Assembly: GCA_003252295.1 (NCBI GenBank)
Contig: QKEV01000017.1
Coordinates: 34,931 to 98,930 of the forward strand
Origin: a bacterium
Lineage (GTDB): Bacteria; Patescibacteriota; Minisyncoccia; Phycocordibacterales; UBA12088
Length of the DNA stretch: 64,000 nucleotides
Reading direction: 5' to 3'
In this document: one piece after another, positions 31,400 to 63,442 of the stretch
How the letters are laid out: each line of letters opens with the position of its first letter
Position numbering within the stretch: position 1 is the stretch's first letter
Made by a program: the position numbers and the translations under genes
Notes under the pieces: model-generated
What the model was told of the DNA's origin: nothing
The model's database searches: none
The model's input: the letters and a program-made list of their open reading frames with translations, nothing else

Positions 31400-31541
31400 G
31401 TTATTGATGTGCGGTCACCCAAAGGGCATAAGAACCCGCACAGAAACAAATGTTTCACCGACCCCCTTCTTGTTCGATTCTACATCCTCAAAGCAAGTAC
31501 ACACAAAGGGTGACCAGTAGGTCACCCTTTGTGTGTACTTG
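31400..31541. repeat. degenerate tRNA-flank repeat element
   Basis: gttattgatgtgcgg...cttgttcgattctacatcc resembles the element downstream of tRNA-Gly(GCC). It is followed by the perfect hairpin cacaaagggtgacc-agta-ggtcaccctttgtg. Confidence 0.4.
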
Positions 31542-44543: not shown

Positions 44544-46412
44544 CTACTCATTCTCTCCCACATCATCTCCTGTAGCAGGTTCACCTTCTTCTTCCTTACT
44601 TACCGCATCTCCAAGCACTTCAGTTTGTACCAAGTCCCATGGTATCTCAACACCATTTAGGTATACATGACCAAGCTGCACATCTTCTGGTGCCTCAATA
44701 CTCGCTGAATAACTCTTCTCTGTTTGGACCTGTAAGCATCCAACCTCATCTTCATTACTGTCGATTGTTATAGCAAGTGACACTACACCATCCTCTTCTG
44801 AGGCAACAGTACCAACAACATGGCACGGGGTCTCAAGTTCTAAACTTCCTGTGTATGTGTGTACACCCTCAGTGTAGGTATGCGTGAGTACATACCTCTG
44901 CTCTTCCGTTGTCTCATCAGCTTGTACATCAGTAGTTTCTTCTTGTGGTGTGTCAGTAATTTGTTCACCTTTTTCTTCAATCTCTCCTTCTAATGTCTCT
45001 ATGGTACGCTGTATCAACTTTAGCGCCTTTGTGAAGAGTTCTTCTGCATCGTCGTAATCCTCTAACACAAATGCTATGTCTCCACGAAGTTGGTAAGCAA
45101 CCGCATCTTTTATATGAGCATTTACCTGTTCAACAGTACTCACCTCGAAACCATTTTTTGTGAGAAGCAGTGTACGAGCATGCTGTATATCCGCTTCCAC
45201 TTCAGCACGAAGCTGTGTAAGTTCTGCAACATGTTCATCGACAAACTCTGTATCTTCTTCACCCTCACCTGTCGTCACAGTCTCATCCTCCTGAACACCC
45301 TCTTCTACCACCTGTACTTCTTCAATACTTTCATCCTCCATCCGCACCGTTGTGTCTTCAGATGGATATATCTGTACAGAAAATAGCTTTGCCACCTCTA
45401 AAAGCTGTACCACCTTTTGCAAGAGTGCTACAGCCTCCCTATAGACACTGTACGCATCCGAGTAGTTGTACTCTCCAAGTGCAGTATTCCCTTCTGCAAG
45501 CAACACCTTCCCATGTTCGATCTGTGCTGATACCTGCATACCCGTCTCAGAGGATGGATCTAGTTCTCCATAAAGATTCTCAGCATTTTCAAGCAACTCG
45601 AACACTCGAGCTTGAGCACGATACGTTGCACGTACACGCATGTTAGCAGAGTTGATACCGTCCTCATCTACAGGTGCAGTAACATCATCTGTACCTTCAG
45701 TTCCCTCAACTCCTTCTTTTTCAGTCGTCCCTATTTTCTCCTCTGCATCCTCACGTATCTTCCCCACCTCCATAGCTGCAGTACGGACCTGCTCTACTAG
45801 TTCGATAGAACTTTCCTGCGGTTCATCTTCTGATTCAACAATGAGTCGAGCAAGTACTGCTTCATGTGCATCAAGTGATTCTTCAAACTCACTTGATGCC
45901 TCTGCTGCAAGTACTGGGTCTGTTGCTTCATATGCAAGCACCTGTTCAACCACTGCCTCAGTATGCTCAGCAAACAATTTTGATACTTGCTCACGTGCAT
46001 CATCATCTAGTTTTCCTTCAGCAGCAAGCTGACTCGCTTCAACGAGTCGTCGTTTTGCACGTTCCTGTTCCCAAGCCATACGGTCTGCTTCATTGAGAAA
46101 TGCTGTTTTTACCTCCTCATTTATATTTACCTTTACTCCGTAGAGTAAATCTCCTGGAAGCGCATCACCTGCCGCGAAAGAAACACCGAACGTGCTAGTG
46201 GTAAGTACCGTAGCAATAACAAGGGCTCCAGAAACATGATGCATACGAAAAAATGGCAAGAATGATGGTTTGCTTACCTGTGTATCTACTGAAGATCGTA
46301 TAGGTTTGTACTCCATGTAGGAGACAATTGACTCACGCATACGAGCTTTGTCACTCTCTTCTAGTTTTACGTATTCTGTTCCTCTTTGGAACTGTGCTTC
46401 TAATTTTTTCAT
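44544..46412 (-). CDS. putative anti-sigma factor: membrane-anchored coiled-coil protein with conserved C-terminal domain
   Basis: Its ATG at 46412 abuts the TAA of the upstream ECF sigma gene (TAAATG). Cytoplasmic N-terminus, one TM helix (ALVIATVLTTSTFGVSFAAG), a long acidic coiled-coil region, and a C-terminal domain THTYTEGVHTYTG...NGVEIPWDL paralogous to 6163..7329. Confidence 0.55.
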   Translation of the reverse strand: MKKLEAQFQRGTEYVKLEESDKARMRESIVSYMEYKPIRSSVDTQVSKPSFLPFFRMHHVSGALVIATVLTTSTFGVSFAAGDALPGDLLYGVKVNINEEVKTAFLNEADRMAWEQERAKRRLVEASQLAAEGKLDDDAREQVSKLFAEHTEAVVEQVLAYEATDPVLAAEASSEFEESLDAHEAVLARLIVESEDEPQESSIELVEQVRTAAMEVGKIREDAEEKIGTTEKEGVEGTEGTDDVTAPVDEDGINSANMRVRATYRAQARVFELLENAENLYGELDPSSETGMQVSAQIEHGKVLLAEGNTALGEYNYSDAYSVYREAVALLQKVVQLLEVAKLFSVQIYPSEDTTVRMEDESIEEVQVVEEGVQEDETVTTGEGEEDTEFVDEHVAELTQLRAEVEADIQHARTLLLTKNGFEVSTVEQVNAHIKDAVAYQLRGDIAFVLEDYDDAEELFTKALKLIQRTIETLEGEIEEKGEQITDTPQEETTDVQADETTEEQRYVLTHTYTEGVHTYTGSLELETPCHVVGTVASEEDGVVSLAITIDSNEDEVGCLQVQTEKSYSASIEAPEDVQLGHVYLNGVEIPWDLVQTEVLGDAVSKEEEGEPATGDDVGENE

Positions 46413-51557: not shown

Positions 51558-52343
51558 ATGCAACTGCTACAACTTTCAAAAAACGAAAATAAAATTTTCA
51601 CCCAATTAAAGCAGGGTGACTCTACACCTCTCGAACTTTCTCGCAGTACACACATTACACGCCCAACTGTGTATGAAACCCTAAAGAAACTTAAGGCACG
51701 AAAACTTGTGCAAACAAAGATCGTACACGGAAAAAAATACTGGACACTTGAAGATGAGCGAGTTATTGAAGATGAGCTATACAAAGCAAAAAAGGCATTG
51801 CTTGATATTTCTGAAACAACAGAAGAAGTCCATGGAAGATGTGAGTCAAATATCATCATCTATAAAGATGAAAAAAGTATACAAAAGCTACTCTTCAATT
51901 TACTATCACATACAAAAAATGAACGAATGTACGGCATACAAGGTAATAACATTGAAATTGGTTGGAGTAAGATATTCTCACCTGATGCAACCAACAAGCT
52001 AAATAGGTTGGTGAAGAAAAACAAGATAATCATGGAAGCAGTCATACCGAGAGGTTGGTTTGAGAAACATGCAAAGTTATGGGGCAAAGAATGGGTAAAG
52101 CACTTTATGGGACGCATGACCATAGCACACGAGATTGACGAGGAGTATTTCAAGCATGGCGCACAGTTGTTTGCTACAAAAAATGCTCTGTATCTGCTTT
52201 CGTTTAATGAGTCACTTGCAATAGAGATACGCAACTCAGAAACACAGAAGCTTGTACTTTCACTACTCTCATACATTCAGGACAATGCTAAACGAGTAGA
52301 ACCAAATACAATACTTGGAAAATTGGTTGAAAATGTAGAATAA
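51558..52343 (+). CDS. TrmB-like winged-helix transcriptional regulator
   Basis: N-terminal HTH (NKIFTQLKQGDSTPLELSRSTHITRPTVYETLKKLKARKLV) plus a ~170-aa C-terminal domain. Divergent from the rSAM operon. Confidence 0.55.
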   Translation: MQLLQLSKNENKIFTQLKQGDSTPLELSRSTHITRPTVYETLKKLKARKLVQTKIVHGKKYWTLEDERVIEDELYKAKKALLDISETTEEVHGRCESNIIIYKDEKSIQKLLFNLLSHTKNERMYGIQGNNIEIGWSKIFSPDATNKLNRLVKKNKIIMEAVIPRGWFEKHAKLWGKEWVKHFMGRMTIAHEIDEEYFKHGAQLFATKNALYLLSFNESLAIEIRNSETQKLVLSLLSYIQDNAKRVEPNTILGKLVENVE

Positions 52344-52350
52344 AATTTTT

Positions 52351-52620
52351 CCGGGACACTTCGTTATCGAACTCGTTCATCTTCGACTCGTTCAATGTAG
52401 ATAATGTGGGAGCCGAGAATCGTCCCCGGGATGACTAAGTATTTTCTTGCCGGGACGCTATGCTATCGAACTCGCTCACCTTCGACTCGTTCCTCGCTCA
52501 GGTTCACTCTCTAAGAACCCACGGTTCTCAGCGTTCGTCGTAAACTCCTCACAGCTCTCCTTCAAGGGAAAACTAGAGTTTTCCCTACCCCTTTCCATGT
52601 TCGATTCCCGGCGACTCCGT
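52351..52620. repeat. tRNA-flank repeat element(s) downstream of tRNA-Pro
   Basis: 52456..52607 is homologous to the 142-bp insert at the tRNA-Gly(GCC) locus (gctatcgaactc...agaacccacggttctcagcgtt...ggaaaactagagttttcc...cctttccatgttcgattc). It is flanked by tRNA-Pro T-arm-like halves (gccggga / ccggcgactccg). A partial tandem copy lies at 52351..52440, with cttcgactcgttc repeated 100 bp apart. Confidence 0.6.
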
Positions 52621-52670
52621 AAAAATACAGAAAAACCTACAGAACATTTCTGTAGGTTTTTCTGTATTTG

Positions 52671-52741
52671 TCGGGGAGCCGGGAATCGAACCCGGGCCAC
52701 ACGGTCCCAAACCGCGTACACTACCACTATGCTACACCCCG
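52671..52741 (-). tRNA. tRNA-Pro (anticodon TGG)
   Basis: Acceptor cggggtg/ctccccg with one mismatch, anticodon stem cgcgg/ccgtg with loop TTTGGGA, T arm cccgg-ttcgatt-ccggg. Preceded by a terminator hairpin. Confidence 0.75.
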
Positions 52742-52818
52742 TAGTAGAACTTATTTCCAAGTGCCAAAATAGAGTACCACTTTTTCAAAAAAATGCTAAT
52801 CACTTTTTCAAAAAAATG

Positions 52819-53214
52819 CTAATCAAGTAGTACACTCTCAAGCACTTTGACGTAGACCTTTTTACTTTCGGTAAGTATCTGCACAACTATTACATCCACT
52901 GTCCAATCATGTGCACCACCAAGTCCTCGCTCGAGCAAATACACCTCGATCACTCTCTTCAGCCGTGTCTTTTTATTTCTATCTATATGGTCTTCTGGCC
53001 GATAGGTTTCTTCACCCTCGTGTAAAACACTAAATATTTCGGAGGATTTTACTTCTACAAAGTGCAGTACATCGTCTTTTATACACACAACATCCAACTC
53101 TCCGCACTTTTTTCTATAATTTCGCTCAACTATGCGATACTTTCTGTTTTCTAGATACTGTGCAGCAATATCCTCACCAAGCTGTCCTATGGAAATATGC
53201 TTATTTTTAGCCAT
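52819..53214 (-). CDS. yraN: YraN-family (UPF0102) endonuclease-like protein
   Basis: 131 aa. GEDIAAQYLENRKYRIVERNYR...GELDVV...FVEVK pattern. Confidence 0.7.
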   Translation of the reverse strand: MAKNKHISIGQLGEDIAAQYLENRKYRIVERNYRKKCGELDVVCIKDDVLHFVEVKSSEIFSVLHEGEETYRPEDHIDRNKKTRLKRVIEVYLLERGLGGAHDWTVDVIVVQILTESKKVYVKVLESVLLD

Positions 53215-53335
53215 ATTTGTTTTTATCGTACATGTCCTTTATTCACATATACACAGACTTATCCCCAGTTATGCACATGTGTGGCAAAAGAGCAGCTAGT
53301 ACGAAACTAGCTGCTCCAAAAACCTCTGCAGTATC

Positions 53336-53944
53336 CTATCCACCATCTTGAACTAACTCGAGTTTCGAAGAGGTAGGTATTGCAGTAGTCTTGGAAACTC
53401 TTTCTTGTACTTCCTTAGGAACATTTTCAGGTGCAAACGTTAGCTCCTTAAAGGAATGGTCACAAACCATCTTCGGATCTGAAAGATTGTGCATACTGGC
53501 AAACTTATCAATCAAATCACCTACCAACTCTTGTCCAGCTGGCATTTGGTTTGTACATACCAAACTTGAGTACGAAAAAACTCCATTTCCATCTGATTCA
53601 ATCGCAGGTAATGCTATTGAAAGAATAGGTACCGCGTGTTTTCTGTCATACAAACGAGGAAATCTCCACCCGAAGATTGGGATTCGCCTACATTTGCAAA
53701 ACACCACGTAGTAGATTGTCTCTGCAAGGAAACCCTTGGCTGCTACTGTAAACGGTCCATCTTCAAGTTCTATCTCATCTACAGCGAAAGATCCGTGGAC
53801 AAATTTGCCAACATTTGGACTATACTCTTCAGAAACTGCAAGCTTCCCGACAATCTCAGTAATCAGAAGTTTGAGTCCGTTCTTCAGTGCACTTTGGGTA
53901 TAACACACTCTTCCTTCCATATCTTCCTCCGCAGTAGATTTCAT
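53336..53944 (-). CDS. hypothetical protein
   Basis: 202 aa with no recognisable motif. Confidence 0.35.
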   Translation of the reverse strand: MKSTAEEDMEGRVCYTQSALKNGLKLLITEIVGKLAVSEEYSPNVGKFVHGSFAVDEIELEDGPFTVAAKGFLAETIYYVVFCKCRRIPIFGWRFPRLYDRKHAVPILSIALPAIESDGNGVFSYSSLVCTNQMPAGQELVGDLIDKFASMHNLSDPKMVCDHSFKELTFAPENVPKEVQERVSKTTAIPTSSKLELVQDGG

Positions 53945-54097
53945 TTAGGTTATATGCCTAATATCTTCCTAGTCATGACCATACCATATTTACTATATTT
54001 GTATAGAAAAGATGAAATACTGCTGTTCTTGCATTAATTTTAAACATGATTAGTATGTCGATTAGAAAAAACATCAAACAAATGCATGGAGGTTACA

Positions 54098-54421
54098 ATG
54101 AGATTTGAAATACTATTCAAAGGTGAAAGCAAGGCGTCAGAGCACTATAGTGAAATACATGTTTCCGAAAATCCGAATGCTGAAACCCTTAAAGATGTGA
54201 CAGCTTTCATTCAGAAACACCATGCCCCTCTCAGGGTGTTTGTCAGATTTAGCGCACATCCACCTGTTTCCGAAGAGCAAATGGATGCACTCAACACACT
54301 TGATGATGTGGCTCAAGCCGAACATGTTCCCGTAACACTTGATCTTTGTAACTGTTGCATTAACAACCTTACCGTGTTCACCAAAAACCCTCGATGGTGG
54401 TCTCGGTGGGAACGATGTTAA
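54098..54421 (+). CDS. hypothetical protein
   Basis: GGAGG SD before the ATG at 54098. Unknown function. Confidence 0.4.
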   Translation: MRFEILFKGESKASEHYSEIHVSENPNAETLKDVTAFIQKHHAPLRVFVRFSAHPPVSEEQMDALNTLDDVAQAEHVPVTLDLCNCCINNLTVFTKNPRWWSRWERC

Positions 54422-54428
54422 CACACAG

Positions 54429-54456
54429 CCCCCTGCAGACGCGTGTCTGCAGGGGG
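54429..54456. terminator. bidirectional terminator (perfect 28-bp palindrome)
   Basis: ccccctgcagacgc|gcgtctgcaggggg between convergent genes. Confidence 0.6.
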
Positions 54457-54462
54457 TTACTC

Positions 54463-54975
54463 TTACTTCTTGAAGAGCCACTTGGTTCGTGGGTTGATAC
54501 AAACCTTACCATCAACAACCGTACCAGTTTTCATATCCAAGAATACCCTCTTGTCCCTTGGACACGCTGATATAACTAAAAATTTTCCATCAATAGGGCG
54601 AGTACCTACCACAATTTGACTTACAGCGTCTTCCTCTTCAATCATGATTGGTACCTTGAAAGCAACATTATGTATCACGTCTTTCAGATGAGCACTGTTC
54701 ACCACCTCTAACCAGTCATCTAGCAGCACGTACTCCTCAGTGTACCCGAAATCATACGGTCGTAGCAGTAATAAAATAGTTCCATTAGGATCGTATGCGC
54801 CAAAACTCACTTGGGTAAGTGCATGCTCCACAGCAGCAGAATAAAATATTGCATTTGCATCATAAATCGCGATCGTCTCCTCGACTGAGGTACATTGGAA
54901 AATACCTGATGTCTCTGCCCATACCGGAACAGCAATATCCCTTCCTGCAGCACGCAAGGTAACATAATCATCCAT
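54463..54975 (-). CDS. hypothetical protein
   Basis: 170 aa with no motif. Confidence 0.35.
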   Translation of the reverse strand: MDDYVTLRAAGRDIAVPVWAETSGIFQCTSVEETIAIYDANAIFYSAAVEHALTQVSFGAYDPNGTILLLLRPYDFGYTEEYVLLDDWLEVVNSAHLKDVIHNVAFKVPIMIEEEDAVSQIVVGTRPIDGKFLVISACPRDKRVFLDMKTGTVVDGKVCINPRTKWLFKK

Positions 54976-55075
54976 TTCTATACCTCCCCGAAAAGGTTAT
55001 ATTTCATGGTCAAATTTCTAAACGAAAAATAACACAATGTAATTATTTAACAAGAAATCCATACATATACAGAAA

Positions 55076-55341
55076 CTACTCAACAACAAAAGGAGGGTAT
55101 GAACCCTCCTTTTGTTGTTAATGTGCGGGTAGGGAGACGCTTCGCTATCGAACTCACTTCCTACGATCGCTCTCTGAGAACCCACGGTTCTCAGCGTTTC
55201 GCTTCGCTCCACTGCTCTCCTACACAGGAAAACTAGAGTTTTCCTGACACCTTTCCATGTTCGATTCTCCCTACGCAAGCTACTCAACAACAAAAGGAGG
55301 GTATGAACCCTCCTTTTGTTGTTAATGTGCGGGTAGGGAGA
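55076..55341. repeat. 62-bp perfect direct repeat (terminator hairpin + tRNA-Gly 3' end) flanking a 142-bp insert
   Basis: ctactcaacaacaaaaggagggtatgaaccctccttttgttgttaatgtgcgggtagggaga occurs at 55076..55137 and 55280..55341. The insert 55138..55279 ends in an inverted tRNA-3'-end mimic (ttcgattctccctacgca). Confidence 0.75.
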
Positions 55342-55398
55342 ATCGAACTCCCGTCTACGCCATGGCAAGGCGTCATCCTACCACTAAACGATACCCGC
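55328..55398 (-). tRNA. tRNA-Gly (anticodon GCC)
   Basis: Acceptor gcgggta/tacccgc, anticodon stem acgcc/ggcgt with loop TTGCCAT, T arm gggag-ttcgatt-ctccc. Confidence 0.8.
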
Positions 55399-55463
55399 AA
55401 TATTTACGTGATACATCATAGCGTCTGAACCGCTAAATGTCTACTGTTTGTTCACAATTTACA

Positions 55464-56267
55464 TTACACCTTATTCATCCAGGCAGTAAGATCAACACTC
55501 CACCCTGTCTCACATGCAATATCAAGCAAATGCTTTGAAAGATCTACCAAAACTCGTTCTTGCACCTTACGACACTCATTTCTCTCTGTATTCACAAGTA
55601 GCAAACTGTCGCTAAACATGAATACATCCTCAACCGCCACACCATAGAGAGCTGGCACAATGTTAAGACGCACCATGTTTGATTGTGGAGGCATTGGGGT
55701 AGACCCTTTTTCAATGAGGGCATCAGCAATAGTCGAATCAATCAGTATCTCGAGTTTTAAATTATTCTCTATAGAAACAGCAACGTACTTTGAGAAACGG
55801 AGCACAGACTCCTCGCGACCATTCTGCCCACGAGAGAAAAGTAGCCGTACCCTGTCACCTGCATGCTTTTTTGCAAGTTCACCGAACGTTACCTTTTCAT
55901 CACCTTTACTGACGATATTTTCGTCATATTTTCTTTTCTCTTCATACTCCTGACTCTCCTTTACTGAAACCGTTCCATCTTGATCTTGATCAGCACGAAA
56001 ACGTCGCTCTATCCAATCAAGTGTATTTGCAACCTCATCTGTGTTCACAAAGTACTCATAGTGTCCATTCACCCTCTCTTTAAAAACAAGTCCTTGCTTT
56101 ACGAGACGACGCATCACAGCATCAACTGTTGTACGAGGTACATTTGCCCGAGTAGCTGCCTTTGTCATGTTCATTCGCCCAAAGGTAGCAAGTGCTGTAA
56201 ACACTTTCACCTCACGTTCATTGAGTCCCAGGAACTGTAATTTATCTATGACAAAATCCATTGCCAT
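55464..56267 (-). CDS. TrmB-like winged-helix transcriptional regulator
   Basis: N-terminal HTH (LNEREVKVFTALATFGRMNMTKAATRANVPRTTVDAVMRRLVKQGLV) plus a C-terminal domain. Confidence 0.5.
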   Translation of the reverse strand: MAMDFVIDKLQFLGLNEREVKVFTALATFGRMNMTKAATRANVPRTTVDAVMRRLVKQGLVFKERVNGHYEYFVNTDEVANTLDWIERRFRADQDQDGTVSVKESQEYEEKRKYDENIVSKGDEKVTFGELAKKHAGDRVRLLFSRGQNGREESVLRFSKYVAVSIENNLKLEILIDSTIADALIEKGSTPMPPQSNMVRLNIVPALYGVAVEDVFMFSDSLLLVNTERNECRKVQERVLVDLSKHLLDIACETGWSVDLTAWMNKV

Positions 56268-58379: not shown

Positions 58380-58560
58380 TAGGAACGTTTATTACACCGC
58401 CAGGACTTGCCTCTCCCTACGGTCGAGATCAATGTTTACATTGTCGCTTCGCTCTGTGTAAACATTAGTCCTTCGGTTCTAGTTCTGGACGCAAAACATA
58501 TTTATGTTTTGCTCGGGTGCACATATAACAAAAACCCCAGGAAGGGGTTTTTGTTATATG
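58380..58560. repeat. tRNA-flank repeat / hairpin region downstream of tRNA-Arg
   Basis: Contains caccgccaggacttgcc (a tRNA-Arg 3'-half mimic), gtcgcttcgctc (shared with the Gly-locus insert), and the perfect 23-bp inverted repeat ggtgcacatataacaaaaacccc/ggggtttttgttatatgtgcacc, which incorporates the tRNA 3' end. Confidence 0.45.
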
Positions 58561-62566: not shown

Positions 62567-63442
62567 CTACTCTGTGGAACCAACACACTCCTCTATACCA
62601 CCAATATACTTCTCCATAGTGCTTTCATGCTGGTAACCTACCTTCTCCTTAAGAACAGTTGCATCTGTTTCACCACTCAAAAGGCCGGCTACATACATGT
62701 TTCGGAAGCTCTGCGGGGTAACACGCACTTCGACACTCGCTCGTTCTGCGCACTGTTTTACAATACGTTGTACTGACCGAGGGGTTAAACGGAAACTACT
62801 ACTTCGCTTACCATTGTTCACAAACAGGGCATCATCAGTATCTTTTCTTCCAAGCAAGTAGGACTCAAGTGCTTCTACACACTCCGGAAGAAGATCCACG
62901 GTACGTTGCACCTTTCCCATAACACTGAGTTTTGTACGTTGAAAAGCACTCCTGTTGAGGGCACATAGTTCACCCACCTTTACCCCTGTTGTACCGAGTA
63001 GCAAAAGAATGGCTCTATCTCTATATGATTTTCCATCTACACCAGTAATAGTCTGGTACATACTCCAAAAATCACCTTCATTTGCGACAGAGAGCGGTAT
63101 GTTCAATGATTGCTCGAGAGTCACCTCTTTTGGCAACAAAGTGTTGTGACCACACTTTTTTAGGTACGCTAAAAATACACGTAGTGCAACAAGGTGGTAA
63201 TTTTGCGTCTTTACCGACAAGGTTTCATTTCTTTGTGTCTCAACACTGAACACGTTTTGTTCTTTCAGCCAAACACGAAACATGTTTACTGACTCAGGGG
63301 AGATGGCACGCACATGTTCCACCTGTGTCACCTTTAGAAACCTATCAAGGTATCGGGTGTAGTTTTCAATGGTTTTTTTACTCTTCTTGTTCTGTGCAAG
63401 GTGTTTTAAAAAACCCTCTTTGAGTGTAGTGATCTCATTCAT
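62567..63442 (-). CDS. tyrosine recombinase (XerC/XerD-like integrase)
   Basis: N-terminal SAM-like core-binding domain (TIENYTRYLDRFLK). C-terminal catalytic domain with R...K...HxxR (SFRN) and a terminal HESTMEKY tyrosine. Confidence 0.7.
   Translation of the reverse strand: MNEITTLKEGFLKHLAQNKKSKKTIENYTRYLDRFLKVTQVEHVRAISPESVNMFRVWLKEQNVFSVETQRNETLSVKTQNYHLVALRVFLAYLKKCGHNTLLPKEVTLEQSLNIPLSVANEGDFWSMYQTITGVDGKSYRDRAILLLLGTTGVKVGELCALNRSAFQRTKLSVMGKVQRTVDLLPECVEALESYLLGRKDTDDALFVNNGKRSSSFRLTPRSVQRIVKQCAERASVEVRVTPQSFRNMYVAGLLSGETDATVLKEKVGYQHESTMEKYIGGIEECVGSTE

Follow-up and report, generated by a model that had tools for sequence, protein, structure and literature searches.

A candidate gene-free integrative element of Patescibacteria with a folded core at tRNA genes and other conserved gene ends

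Analysis of the tRNA-Pro(TGG) region of the window (the whole stretch of 64,000 nucleotides under study) suggested that it holds one intact and one decayed copy of a gene-free, non-autonomous integrative element of Patescibacteria that recombines as a folded single strand. We assign this reading a probability of about 0.55; the single-strand step and the enzyme are inferred. Table 1 lists the features of the region. The element family appears to be previously uncatalogued, and our search of the literature returned no description of this element.

Table 1. Coordinates of the element copies in the window, their parts and their target genes
Feature	Position	Strand	Basis or remark
Partial outer copy: orphan CCGGGA, 9-nt module, ATCGAAC, start of left spacer; core deleted	52351..52430	-	
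Orphan GCCGGGA, direct repeat with 52678-52684	52449..52455	-	junction mapping
Junction module: 9-nt insert CGCTATGCT (AGCATAGCG on -, GC-NNN-GC mini-hairpin), then T-loop-like ATCGAAC	52456..52471	-	
P2 hairpin CTAAGAACC-CAC-GGTTCTCAG	52511..52531	-	family pair statistics, consensus fold
Conserved unpaired tract: CAGCTCTCC in the Pro copy, CTGCTCTCC in the family (GGAGAGCAG on -)	52552..52560	-	
P4 hairpin AGGGAAAACT-AG-AGTTTTCCCT	52565..52586	-	39 distinct stem versions in family; compensatory changes in consensus fold
Third-strand tract (CCCCTTTCC on +, GGAAAGGGG on -), mirror repeat of P4 purine strand	52588..52596	-	
Right arm, inverted imperfect copy of tRNA-Pro T-loop, T-stem 3′ strand and acceptor 3′ strand (ATGTTCGATTCCCGGCGACTCCG on +)	52597..52619	-	
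Terminator-like hairpin between element and tRNA-Pro 3′ end	52620..52669	-	read from sequence
Intact tRNA-Pro(TGG), target gene	52670..52741	-	ARAGORN; Rfam tRNA, 61.8 bits; junction mapping
Sister copy at tRNA-Gly(GCC), with flanking repeats	55076..55341	-	
Gly element proper	55138-55277		bracketed by 62-bp direct repeat
Gly 9-nt module	55138-55146		
Gly ATCGAAC	55147-55153		
Gly P2	55174-55194		
Gly CTGCTCTCC	55212-55220		
Gly P4	55225-55246		
Gly third strand	55248-55256		
Gly right arm	55257-55277		
Intact tRNA-Gly(GCC), target of sister copy	55327..55398	-	ARAGORN; Rfam tRNA

The four sequence blocks that the original prediction had reported as shared by the tRNA-Pro and tRNA-Gly inserts were present where it had placed them, beyond chance. 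In the window, AGAACCCACGGTTCTCAGCG gave two exact matches against 0.02 expected, GGAAAACTAGAGTTTTCC occurred at two loci against 0.03 expected, CCTTTCCATGTTCGATTC had two exact matches, and GCTATCGAACTC had two exact matches and a further one with a single mismatch in the outer partial copy at 52363. The sole additional match for these blocks beyond the Pro and Gly elements was one of the fourth block, with three mismatches, in unrelated sequence at 45506. The proposal that both inserts are homologous copies of one element was borne out, as was that of a common insertion point: at both loci the match to the tRNA stops at position 15 when the gene is read in reverse complement, which is nt 60, the last base of the T-loop, adjoining the 3′ strand of the T-stem. 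The flanks of the Pro insert, which spans 52449-52619, are indeed adapted to tRNA-Pro. On the left, the orphan is identical to the tRNA segment 52678-52684 (GCCGGGA on the plus strand, tRNA nt 60-66), and on the right the T-loop and 3′ end recur, imperfectly and in inverted form, as TTCGATTCCCGGCGACTCCG (52600-52619). Left and right arm are predicted to pair and to close the element by a stem in the DNA fold, in which ATCGAAC of the junction module pairs with GTTCGAT of the right arm and the mini-hairpin forms a bulge at the junction. The same junction module was found in four further copies (L013, L018, L071 and L156).

The element had been placed downstream of tRNA-Pro. It is real, but it is integrated into the tRNA gene and not downstream of it: the present tRNA 3′ end, together with the terminator at least at the Gly locus, behaves as inserted DNA, and the outer T-stem fragment is the displaced original tRNA end. 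At tRNA-Pro this end is the orphan, representing the original T-stem 3′ strand and adjoining bases. The 62-bp direct repeat at the Gly locus (55076-55137 and 55280-55341) covers the terminator hairpin and tRNA nt 60-76; by analogy, the terminator-like hairpin at tRNA-Pro is probably element-borne and came together with the replacement 3′ end. What the original prediction called a nested partial tandem copy is identical in its first part (52351-52393) to the full copy (52450-52492) at 37 of 43 nucleotides, with six differences, and a degenerate tRNA-Pro 3′ half follows at 52407-52430. We prefer to see in it what decay has left of a previous insertion into this site. L013, with a clear tandem series (1090-1576) at its tRNA-Gly(TCC), provides a precedent for repeated insertion.

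The family was collected by pattern scans, which yielded 32 genome loci and at least 120 metagenome stretches. Essentially all of these loci, at least about 150, belong to Patescibacteria. Among the genome loci, 31 of 32 lie in Patescibacteria metagenome-assembled genomes (Saccharibacteria, Nomura-, Kaiser-, Taylor- and Wolfebacteria, Paceibacterota and others); a match on a ‘Treponema’ contig (L021) was discarded as a chance match to the pattern. The element is 150-250 bp long, with inserts of 140-250 bp that contain no ORF, and occurs sporadically, with one to three copies in few genomes. Core sequences change little from one CPR class to another, for instance by about 3 of 77 nt between L008 and L017. 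When loci were collected with a pattern lacking the conserved unpaired tract, 29 of the 32 obtained had this tract.

About 20% of the loci adjoin tRNAs, of at least 12 identities and nearly always in the geometry of the window. Among the matches listed, a tRNA lay within 200 nt in 25 of 123 copies, and of the 29 tRNAs within this distance 23 shared the arrangement of the window, being antisense to the core and to its right. Most tRNA copies have their junction at nt 60 or close to it, with identity of 7-17 bp at the join (nt 60-66 or nt 60-76). The other copies occupy quite different targets: 18 loci at the ...IIAH codons (P-loop) of EF-G, LepA or TypA genes, 14 at the last codons (3′ end) of rplL, and others at the stop codon of the CCA-adding enzyme gene, in a membrane-protein gene and at many intergenic sites. 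The GTPase gene lies right of the plus-strand core and in sense orientation in 14 of the 18 cases, and rplL lies right of it and antisense in 13 of 14. A multicopy intergenic form of 196-205 bp with constant ends, GTAAACTCC...GAGTCATTAA, was found nearly identical at 13 or more sites, in both orientations relative to its neighbours.

Recurrence of this geometry among so many copies supports a site-specific mechanism as the right kind of explanation. The more specific idea that this mechanism reads tRNA T-arm structure, which was to be given up if cores turned up at non-tRNA sites without T-arm-like flanks, is unsupported, because most copies in the pattern scans sit at exactly such sites. The flanks at each non-tRNA gene site (GTPase, rplL and others) mimic that particular target, and specificity thus seems to lie in the arms of the element and not in recognition of tRNA shape.

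Copies at gene ends share one layout, in which an orphaned gene end comes first, then the folded core and the gene end's inverted mimic, and finally a replacement end joined to the intact gene. The replacement end comprises the 3′ end and a terminator at tRNA and rplL sites and the stretch from the start codon through the ...IIA codons at EF-G, LepA and TypA, where similarity of the fragments starts at the start codon and not upstream. The target gene stays intact while its resident end is left outside as orphan. Comparing orphan and intact ends, we counted 37 synonymous and one nonsynonymous change in the last eight codons of rplL (8 loci) and 38 synonymous and 11 nonsynonymous changes in the GTPase 5′ fragments (10 loci). 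A detached orphan of eight codons cannot be under protein-level selection; hence the copies must have diverged in different functional genes before they were joined. Differences that are almost only synonymous therefore indicate horizontal integration, in which the element would bring its own gene end. They are also direct sequence evidence of horizontal DNA flow between distant CPR lineages. The layout explains an oddity of CPR genomes, namely tRNA-like half fragments after tRNA genes and short end duplicates at EF-G, LepA, TypA and rplL, which annotation pipelines may miscall as pseudogenes, small ORFs or assembly errors. Lookups of exact and homologous neighbour proteins revealed no empty site, excised circle or presence-absence polymorphism: one contig breaks at the repeat, one relative, L156, also carries this element, its entire module being inverted, and the others lack the region.

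The conserved core, located between the orphan and the inverted mimic, contains the hairpins P2 and P4 and a tract mirroring the P4 purine strand. Among the 39 distinct P4 stems there were 952 Watson-Crick pairs, seven A.C and no G.T on the plus strand, and the P2 extension had 386 Watson-Crick pairs, 23 A.C and two G.T; the third pair of P2 in the Pro copy is one of this kind, A.C on the plus and G.T on the minus strand. For P4 and P2 together, wobble-compatible pairs favour the minus strand by 30 to 2, a ratio that could partly reflect mutational bias and that includes many sequences related to one another. The strand that the pair statistics select as the folding one is the complement of the plus strand shown and, in the window, the tRNA-sense strand. 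Its consensus fold includes nine pairs with compensatory changes, and its P3 loops are mostly C-GNA-G. In DNA folds of both window copies P2, P4 and the arm stem were obtained, together with a mini-hairpin bulging out where the junction lies.

The tail follows the P4 purine strand by a mirror rule at 480 of 600 positions, compared with 431.6 ± 4.8 after shuffling; none of 2000 shuffles reached this value (z about 10). Informative variants are GGGAGGAC, which occurs with CCCTCCTC, and GAGAAAAC, which occurs with CTCTTTTC, and exceptions to the rule lead to T·A-T on the minus strand. The sequence pattern of an intrastrand triplex (purine tract, pyrimidine complement and mirror third tract) is thus present and covarying, which suggests that the core carries such a triplex, and the covariation of its tracts across about 40 sequence versions is evidence of selection for it. 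If so, the core may be among the clearest natural cases of a triple helix under selection. Since the three tracts covary in all these versions, the question is directly testable with oligonucleotides. Intrastrand triplex motifs have been described by Holder et al. (2015; PMC4666352) in enterobacteria and cyanobacteria, as G/C-rich repeats with a link to instability. They are like the present core in that purine tract, pyrimidine complement and mirror third tract lie on one strand of repeated intergenic DNA, but here the tracts covary and belong to a larger element with defined integration sites.

Could the core instead be a structured non-coding RNA? It would then be a small RNA cut out of read-through transcripts of tRNA or rplL, or the 5′ leader of translational GTPase genes, with the arms as closing stem, and would have spread by ordinary gene-end duplication or recombination. 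We consider this unlikely. Covarying hairpins with G.U-compatible pairs, the extreme conservation of the core across CPR classes and the identity of the folding strand with the transcribed strand just downstream of tRNA and rplL fit an RNA. The arm stem at tRNA sites is also similar to an acceptor/T-arm minihelix and might be a substrate of RNase P or the CCA enzyme. In addition, the position directly after the stop codon of the CCA-enzyme gene is conserved in four lineages; it is shared by Saccharibacteria, Nomurabacteria and Kaiserbacteria, for which long vertical retention for a function could also account. On the other hand, the core is not an mRNA feature: its wobble-compatible strand has sense orientation at tRNA and rplL and antisense orientation at EF-G, LepA and TypA, where no room for a promoter of its own is apparent. 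The two orientations of the multicopy form and the sporadic occurrence of the element speak against an RNA, and synonymous-only divergence of the detached ends requires horizontal joining instead of local duplication. Antiparallel G·G-C and A·A-T triplets, like triloops of the C-GNA-G type, typically occur in DNA and not in RNA. A search of the core against Rfam 15 gave only tRNAs at the gathering threshold, and permissive searches returned no match to the core either (E ≤ 1 for four loci; E ≤ 10 for window positions 52300-55420). By eye, and informally, no convincing match to hammerhead-like CUGA...GAAA cores was noticed. Coding of a peptide was rejected as well: in several GTPase-linked copies P3 differs in length by numbers not divisible by three, and similar ‘ORFs’ across cores merely reflect DNA conservation. 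Strand choice, purine-motif triplets and GNA triloops are the points from which we argue, indirectly, for single-stranded DNA over RNA.

For the folded single-strand element we propose the following mechanism. The folding strand would act as single-stranded DNA, and its orphan-side arm and inverted mimic would pair into a duplex imitating the target, with the bulged GC-NNN-GC mini-hairpin at the crossover point and the core, including its intrastrand purine-motif triplex, making up the tip. Strand exchange within the overlap of about 7 bp would be the work of a recombinase, most plausibly of the tyrosine type, that is provided in trans, by analogy with integron attC and CTX-phage attP sites that work as folded single strands. 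The arms would set the target, which would explain why the targets are so many and so different, and repeated integration into the restored gene end would produce tandem series, with the outer partial copy as an example. Against this proposal, no recombinase, transposase or reverse transcriptase recurred within 3 kb of about 120 copies among the matches listed, and the negative results for empty sites and for copies on viral contigs count against it as well. ORF clusters within 2.5-3 kb were housekeeping only (translational GTPases, L7/L12, L10, CCA enzyme, PBP and LeuRS).

A more far-reaching version holds that these are self-contained, arm-programmed DNA insertion elements, in which a folded single-stranded scaffold of about 100 nt with a selected triplex recruits a host or helper recombinase and complementary, target-copying arms direct integration into any chosen conserved sequence. 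This is tentative and, as it stands, rather doubtful. If true, the family would represent a DNA-level counterpart, free of protein genes, of guide-programmed recombination, its spread between CPR classes perhaps being due to a DNA-uptake lifestyle. If target choice truly resides in the arms, it would also offer a small natural template for programmable insertion, and its helper enzyme would be worth finding.

Known tRNA-targeting elements suggest another origin, which we regard as less probable than the RNA. The copies could be scars of integrase-encoding prophages or integrative elements, that is, fused attL-attR remnants left after the loss of all genes, whose core is a double-stranded attP arm region binding integrase and accessory proteins. 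The 3′ half of tRNA genes with the T-loop region is a classic target of tyrosine integrases, the insert lies between direct repeats of the tRNA 3′ end, with the gene restored (exactly 7 bp at Pro, 62 bp at the window Gly locus and about 17 bp in L156, each with an intact tRNA), and tandem arrays occur, as in L013. Replacement of a 5′ gene end is known from dusA-specific islands (PMC4482086). Like these islands and tRNA-specific tyrosine-integrase elements, the present family integrates inside a conserved gene, carries a replacement end and has a short target repeat bracketing the insert; the preference for the T-loop or 3′ half of tRNA genes and the tandem arrays at one tRNA are also shared. 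It differs in being gene-free and only 150-250 bp long, in its extra inverted copy of the target end, in the constraints of single-strand folding on the core and in the use of many unrelated targets by one family. Moreover, no integrase gene lies inside the element beside the att site, and neither an integrase nor any other element gene was seen beside the core in at least about 150 loci. Sizes are uniform, with no decay series, and viral contigs contained no copy; three scans of them gave 0, 0 and 3 matches, and these three, read individually, were chance matches lacking P2 and P4. Covariation, strand-asymmetric wobble and a mirror third strand would be unexpected for double-stranded protein-binding sites, and the small form has itself been active recently, as near-identical copies at no fewer than 13 unrelated intergenic locations show.

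It is very improbable that the element is a miniature transposon derivative (a MITE or an IS200/IS605-type palindrome-associated form) served by a transposase elsewhere, with the gene-end duplications as secondary rearrangements: the multicopy form with its imperfect terminal inverted similarity and defined ends, the hairpins with one preferred strand as in single-strand transposition and the lack of coding capacity agree with it, but the ends at 13 multicopy sites show no target-site duplication and no conserved flanking tetranucleotide, no transposase was found among the neighbouring genes of the copies, orientation is inconsistent with respect to GC skew, and the order of orphan, core, mimic and replacement end (GTPase 14/18, rplL 13/14, tRNA 23/29) is too regular. 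MITEs, REP/REPIN sequences and CIMEs are likewise small, gene-free, sometimes multicopy, rich in hairpins and presumably mobilised in trans, but they do not share the gene-end replacement, the target-matched arms, the missing target-site duplication and the spread of near-identical cores across CPR classes.

The closest functional analogy to the proposed folded single strand is provided by integron attC and CTX-type attP sites. At these sites one strand with an imperfect inverted repeat folds up, and the resulting duplex is the recombination partner of a double-stranded target; the fold has bulged or extrahelical features and a variable or branched tip, and the choice of strand is intrinsic to the element. 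For the present family an arm stem with a bulged mini-hairpin is predicted, and the strand asymmetry is 30 to 2. It differs in that its arms are copies of the target gene, that its tip is not variable but highly conserved and that cassette arrays are lacking. The tRNA-type arms, ATCGAAC...GTTCGAT, deviate from the attC R-box consensus (RYYYAAC...GTTRRRY) by a C at the first R position, and the GTPase and rplL arms are unrelated to it. Instead of promoterless cassettes beside intI/attI, copies are single or form short tandem series without cassette ORFs, and the arms mimic tRNA, GTPase or rplL, differing between copies, and not dif as in CTX-type IMEX. With the bridge (seek) RNAs of IS110/IS1111 the family shares target choice that apparently resides in short nucleic-acid segments, so that one scaffold serves many targets. 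It differs in that no gene lies in or beside the element, including the adjacent DEDD recombinase that accompanies such a non-coding RNA, that a bridge architecture of two loops is missing and that the target half copied is the same in both arms, instead of the left half in one and the right half in the other.

Not all copies conform to one structure. About one-third have separate 5′ and 3′ hairpins, short arm pairing only and no duplicated gene end; they include those after the CCA-enzyme gene, those at DUF5671 and PBP genes and the multicopy form. Having no duplicated gene end, these copies may move or be maintained in another way. The idea that all copies have paired arms was discarded: pairing is significant in a subset only, and perfect inverted matches of at least 10 nt were present in 10.7% of copies compared with 0.2% of shuffles. 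A replication-strand rule was rejected too, the GC skew of the loci being mixed, and in L022 the core has the opposite orientation relative to the tRNA. A gene for a Xer-type recombinase is present in the window at 62567-63442, 4-10 kb off; it is syntenic in relatives and housekeeping-like, a link to the element is supported by no test, and the recurrence of Xer-like recombinases near copies reflects synteny only. Within the window, 3′ mini-elements of this kind are found on all four tRNAs.

The insert beside tRNA-Pro(TGG) is a member of a family of gene-free, structured mobile elements that occurs throughout the CPR (Patescibacteria), replaces gene ends and carries arms matching the respective host gene. 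Confidence is high for the family, its geometry, its horizontal origin and its folding constraints. A two-hairpin pattern search among 185,579 species genomes revealed 32 loci, 31 of which belong to Patescibacteria (Saccharibacteria, Nomura-, Kaiser-, Taylor- and Wolfebacteria, Paceibacterota and related MAGs). The sole locus from outside this group, L021, lacks every other feature and was rejected. A second pattern, in which hairpin P4 was left free, matched at least 120 metagenome stretches. The cores are near-identical across CPR classes, with 3 differences in 77 nt between loci L008 and L017. No Rfam family matched, even at permissive thresholds, and no earlier description was found in the literature, the coverage of which was incomplete.

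Four sequence blocks had been reported as shared by the Pro insert and its sister copy at tRNA-Gly(GCC). Within the 64 kb window these blocks are exact and confined to the two inserts: AGAACCCACGGTTCTCAGCG gave 2 matches (0.02 expected), GGAAAACTAGAGTTTTCC 2 loci (0.03 expected), and CCTTTCCATGTTCGATTC and GCTATCGAACTC two exact matches each, the latter with an additional one-mismatch match inside the outer partial copy. The sole extra match to the fourth block has 3 mismatches and unrelated surrounding sequence. Pairwise alignment showed that both inserts represent a single element with variable spacers. The flanks, already noted as adapted to the tRNA at Pro, are tRNA-specific. The Pro insert is bounded by GCCGGGA on the left and by an inverted T-loop and 3′-end mimic on the right, the Gly insert by a 62-bp perfect repeat on the left and by TTCGATTCTCCCTACGCA on the right. 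In both copies tRNA identity ends at nt 60, that is, at an equal insertion point. This confirms that the observation was real and non-trivial and that the junction had been placed correctly. The outer partial copy and its degenerate tRNA-Pro half look like the decayed remnant of an earlier event. The pair of Pro and Gly loci lies between two TrmB-family HTH paralogues. At locus L156, an orthologous TrmB gene lies beside the same Gly(GCC) element and the tRNA-plus-element module is inverted; this adjacency probably reflects synteny and not a functional link.

Positions of the inserts, tRNAs and neighbouring features (window coordinates unless a locus is named)
Feature	Position	Strand	Remark
Decayed third family copy	31404-31487		directly 3′ of tRNA-Gly(TCC)
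tRNA-Gly(TCC)	31541-31612		
Extra match to fourth block	45506		
TrmB-family HTH paralogue	51558-52343	+	
Outer partial copy	52351-52393		
Degenerate tRNA-Pro half	52407-52430		
Pro insert	52449-52619		
tRNA-Pro(TGG)	52670-52741	minus	
62-bp perfect repeat	55076-55137 = 55280-55341		spans terminator hairpin and tRNA nt 60-76
Gly insert	55138-55277		
tRNA-Gly(GCC)	55327-55398	minus	
TrmB-family HTH paralogue	55464-56267	-	
Different small element	58392-58522		3′ of tRNA-Arg(TCG)
11-nt direct repeat of tRNA, CCGCCAGGACT	58397, 58566		
Hairpin with GCTTCGC loop	58431-58466		in tRNA-Arg(TCG) element
14-bp palindrome GTTACACGTGTAAC	58777, 60261, 60414, 60450		exact copies
Xer-type tyrosine recombinase	62567-63442	-	Phage_integrase and SAM-like N-terminal domains
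Unrelated second mini-element	L013, 1300-1504		~180 nt
Copy interrupting membrane-protein gene	L023, 6100-6330		

Contrary to the original prediction that a site-specific mechanism reads the T-arm of tRNAs, all copies apart from those at tRNAs occupy non-tRNA sites, the very observation named in advance as refuting it. The interpretation has to be widened, T-arms being just one among several targets. A tRNA lies within 200 nt of 25 of the 123 copies (identities Thr, Asp, His, Arg, Gln, Phe, Ser, Pro, Tyr, Leu, Lys and Gly). As in the window, 23 of the 29 nearby tRNAs are located on the opposite strand 19-82 nt right of the core, with one second tRNA further out. The junction is nt 60 in most copies at tRNAs; a sub-type with the left end CGTCGTCGC is joined inside the T-stem. 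At 18 loci the element directly precedes an EF-G, LepA or TypA gene, and the first 10-17 codons of that gene, ending ...I-I-A(H), are found a second time ahead of the element. Another 14 loci adjoin the rplL 3′ end, with a second copy of the last codons, the stop codon and a terminator. Four lineages have a copy behind the CCA-adding enzyme gene, following its stop codon. Further copies lie after a DUF5671 gene and a PBP gene, and one interrupts a membrane-protein gene, where the right flank carries a long inverted coding-sequence duplicate of ~60 nt and not a short arm. In one lineage, a form of 196-205 bp occupies at least 13 unrelated intergenic sites. These near-identical copies (L037, L047 with two copies, L049, L054, L056, L077-L079, L082, L104, L108, L122 with two copies, and L132) lie between housekeeping genes in both orientations, and have the ends GTAAACTCC...GAGTCATTAA, the core being flanked on either side by long compound hairpins. 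No obvious target duplication was seen at their sites.

All gene-end copies share a common order of parts (core written as the window + strand): orphan gene end; short junction module; variable hairpin P1; P2, (T/C)T(G/A)A-GAACC-NNN-GGTTC-TCA(A/G); variable P3 region; CTGCTCTCC; P4 hairpin; linker of 1-2 nt; pyrimidine tail; inverted, imperfect copy of that gene end; spacer with terminator or ribosome-binding region; and replacement gene end, which runs on into the intact gene. Right of the core is where the intact gene lies at 14/18 GTPase loci, 13/14 rplL loci and for 23/29 tRNAs beside the core. An exception is L022, in which the core is flipped between inverted arms. A sub-family (L040, L063, L067, L070, L129, L142, L144 and L150) with a P4 of the GGGGAACC type has an extra conserved 3′ module right of the core, a hairpin with the internal loop TTCA...(A/G)(A/T)TC and the form GCATTCATCCCC...GGGGAATTCTGC.

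Orphan and intact gene ends are homologous but not simple duplicates. For the last 8 codons of rplL, 37 synonymous codon differences and 1 nonsynonymous difference were counted (8 loci), and for the GTPases 38 and 11 (10 loci), with several loci at 6-8 versus 0. The similarity begins at the start codon and does not extend to the upstream DNA. As a detached 8-codon tail is beyond protein-level selection, the two copies must have diverged in separate functional genes before they were joined. Such a pattern is the signature of an element that arrives with a gene end of its own. The tandem series fit such incoming elements; in L013 the order is orphan, full element, terminator, second orphan, different mini-element and tRNA-Gly(TCC). 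The L013 mini-element is unrelated to the conserved-core family, a full copy of which stands in tandem with it; it lies between an orphan of tRNA-Gly(TCC) and the intact tRNA gene.

Base pairs were counted in 114 unique cores read on the + strand. For the P4 stem, which comes in 39 distinct versions, the count was 952 Watson-Crick pairs, 7 A.C and 0 G.T. Over the outer four pairs of P2 it was 386 Watson-Crick, 23 A.C and 2 G.T. Since A.C becomes a G.T(U) wobble when the opposite strand is read, the minus strand tolerates the pairing by 30 to 2; in the window this is the tRNA-sense strand. A consensus fold computed independently from 32 minus-strand sequences recovered P4 and P2; 9 pairs carry compensatory double changes, and one P2 pair is G.U in 8/32 sequences. 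On this strand the P3 loops are mostly C-GNA-G, and the 9-nt junction insert of Saccharibacteria tRNA copies reads GC-NNN-GC (Gly AGCGAAGCG, Pro AGCATAGCG). Folds of both window copies with DNA parameters predicted the arm stem, P4 and P2, with GC-NNN-GC bulging out as a mini-hairpin precisely where the junction lies. We have moderate confidence that the minus strand is the one that folds. It is transcribed at tRNA and rplL sites and antisense at GTPase sites, and the multicopy family has it in either orientation, so that the polarity belongs to the element and not to transcription.

The tail after P4 tracks the P4 purine strand base by base in the same 5′-to-3′ order (G to C, A to T), as in the pairs GGGAAAAC with CCCCTTTC, GGGGAACC with CCCCCTCC, GAGAAAAC with CTCTTTTC, GGGAGGAC with CCCTCCTC and GGGAAAGGA with CCCTATCCT. 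With the register fixed, this mirror rule is obeyed at 480/600 purine positions; shuffling tails among sequences gave 431.6 ± 4.8 and reached 480 in 0/2000 shuffles. Watson-Crick pairing is impossible in a mirror repeat, and the known structure encoded by one is an intrastrand triple helix. P4 and its tail would apparently form such a helix. On the minus strand its triplets read G*G-C and A*A-T, with T*A-T at the exceptions, and all three are canonical in the antiparallel purine motif. If the plus strand is read instead, G-to-A changes within the central purine strand would disrupt pair and triplet alike. A coupled change was found in the window Gly copy and in L015 (GGG to AGG, CCC to CCT, tail CCCC to CACC). 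Intrastrand triplex motifs with a similar tract have been reported in bacterial repeats (PMC4666352), to which the present element adds covariation of three tracts and defined integration sites.

Integrative elements that replace the ends of tRNA, dusA or other genes behave alike, the incoming DNA bringing its own gene end; replacement of a 5′ gene end is known for dusA-specific islands (PMC4482086). They are defined by an internal integrase, which the present element lacks. MITEs and REPINs are similar in size and copy behaviour, but the element shows neither target duplication nor transposase. In integron attC and CTX-phage attP, folded arms rebuild a duplex recombination target around the crossover. 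A similar mechanism is proposed here, although the element has no R-box consensus, cassette arrays or dif mimicry. With low to moderate confidence, we infer that it would recombine as folded single-stranded DNA in a tyrosine-recombinase-like step, in which the target would be recreated as a duplex by both arms, with the crossover point at its centre. Such a step is suggested by the element's own strand polarity, by the purine-motif triplets and GNA mini-hairpins, which are classic DNA motifs, and by the arms, which would act as in attC and attP. The shortest direct repeat is 7 bp (Pro, nt 60-66), the size of a tyrosine-recombinase overlap. Approximately one third of the copies have self-contained flanking hairpins and short arm pairing only, which counts against a folded single strand; RNA would be a less likely alternative for the active form.

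Further results also count against this reading. No gene for a recombinase, transposase or reverse transcriptase recurred among neighbour ORFs within 2.5-3 kb of ~120 copies, viral contig scans gave no element copy, look-ups via neighbour proteins in relatives gave no empty site or circle, and GC skew of the loci showed no replication-strand rule. The Xer-type enzyme is the sole recombinase candidate seen, with no specific evidence of a role. Its neighbourhood (CCA enzyme, exonuclease III-like gene and recombinase) is conserved in L008, L026 and L032, where the element lies 1.7 kb away. The intergenic region after the CCA-adding enzyme gene is an element site in other CPR lineages. In the window, three of four copies of the palindrome GTTACACGTGTAAC (0 expected) are located in this region and one inside the start of the gene; they look like operator sites.

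The decayed third family copy retains the orphan TGTGCGG, the P4-like hairpin GAAACAAATGTTTC, the tail CCCCCTTC and the arm GTTCGATTC. It is preceded by a terminator hairpin, resembling the Gly(GCC) locus, and P2 and P3 are mostly deleted. The element at tRNA-Arg(TCG) has the same architecture with another core. In addition to its hairpin and direct repeat, it carries GGTTCTAGTTCTGG, which mimics the T-arm, and CGGGTGCAC, an inverted copy of the acceptor that forms part of a 25-bp terminator stem. Inserts of this kind are hence present at each of the four tRNAs in the window, and the arm design extends more widely than the conserved core.
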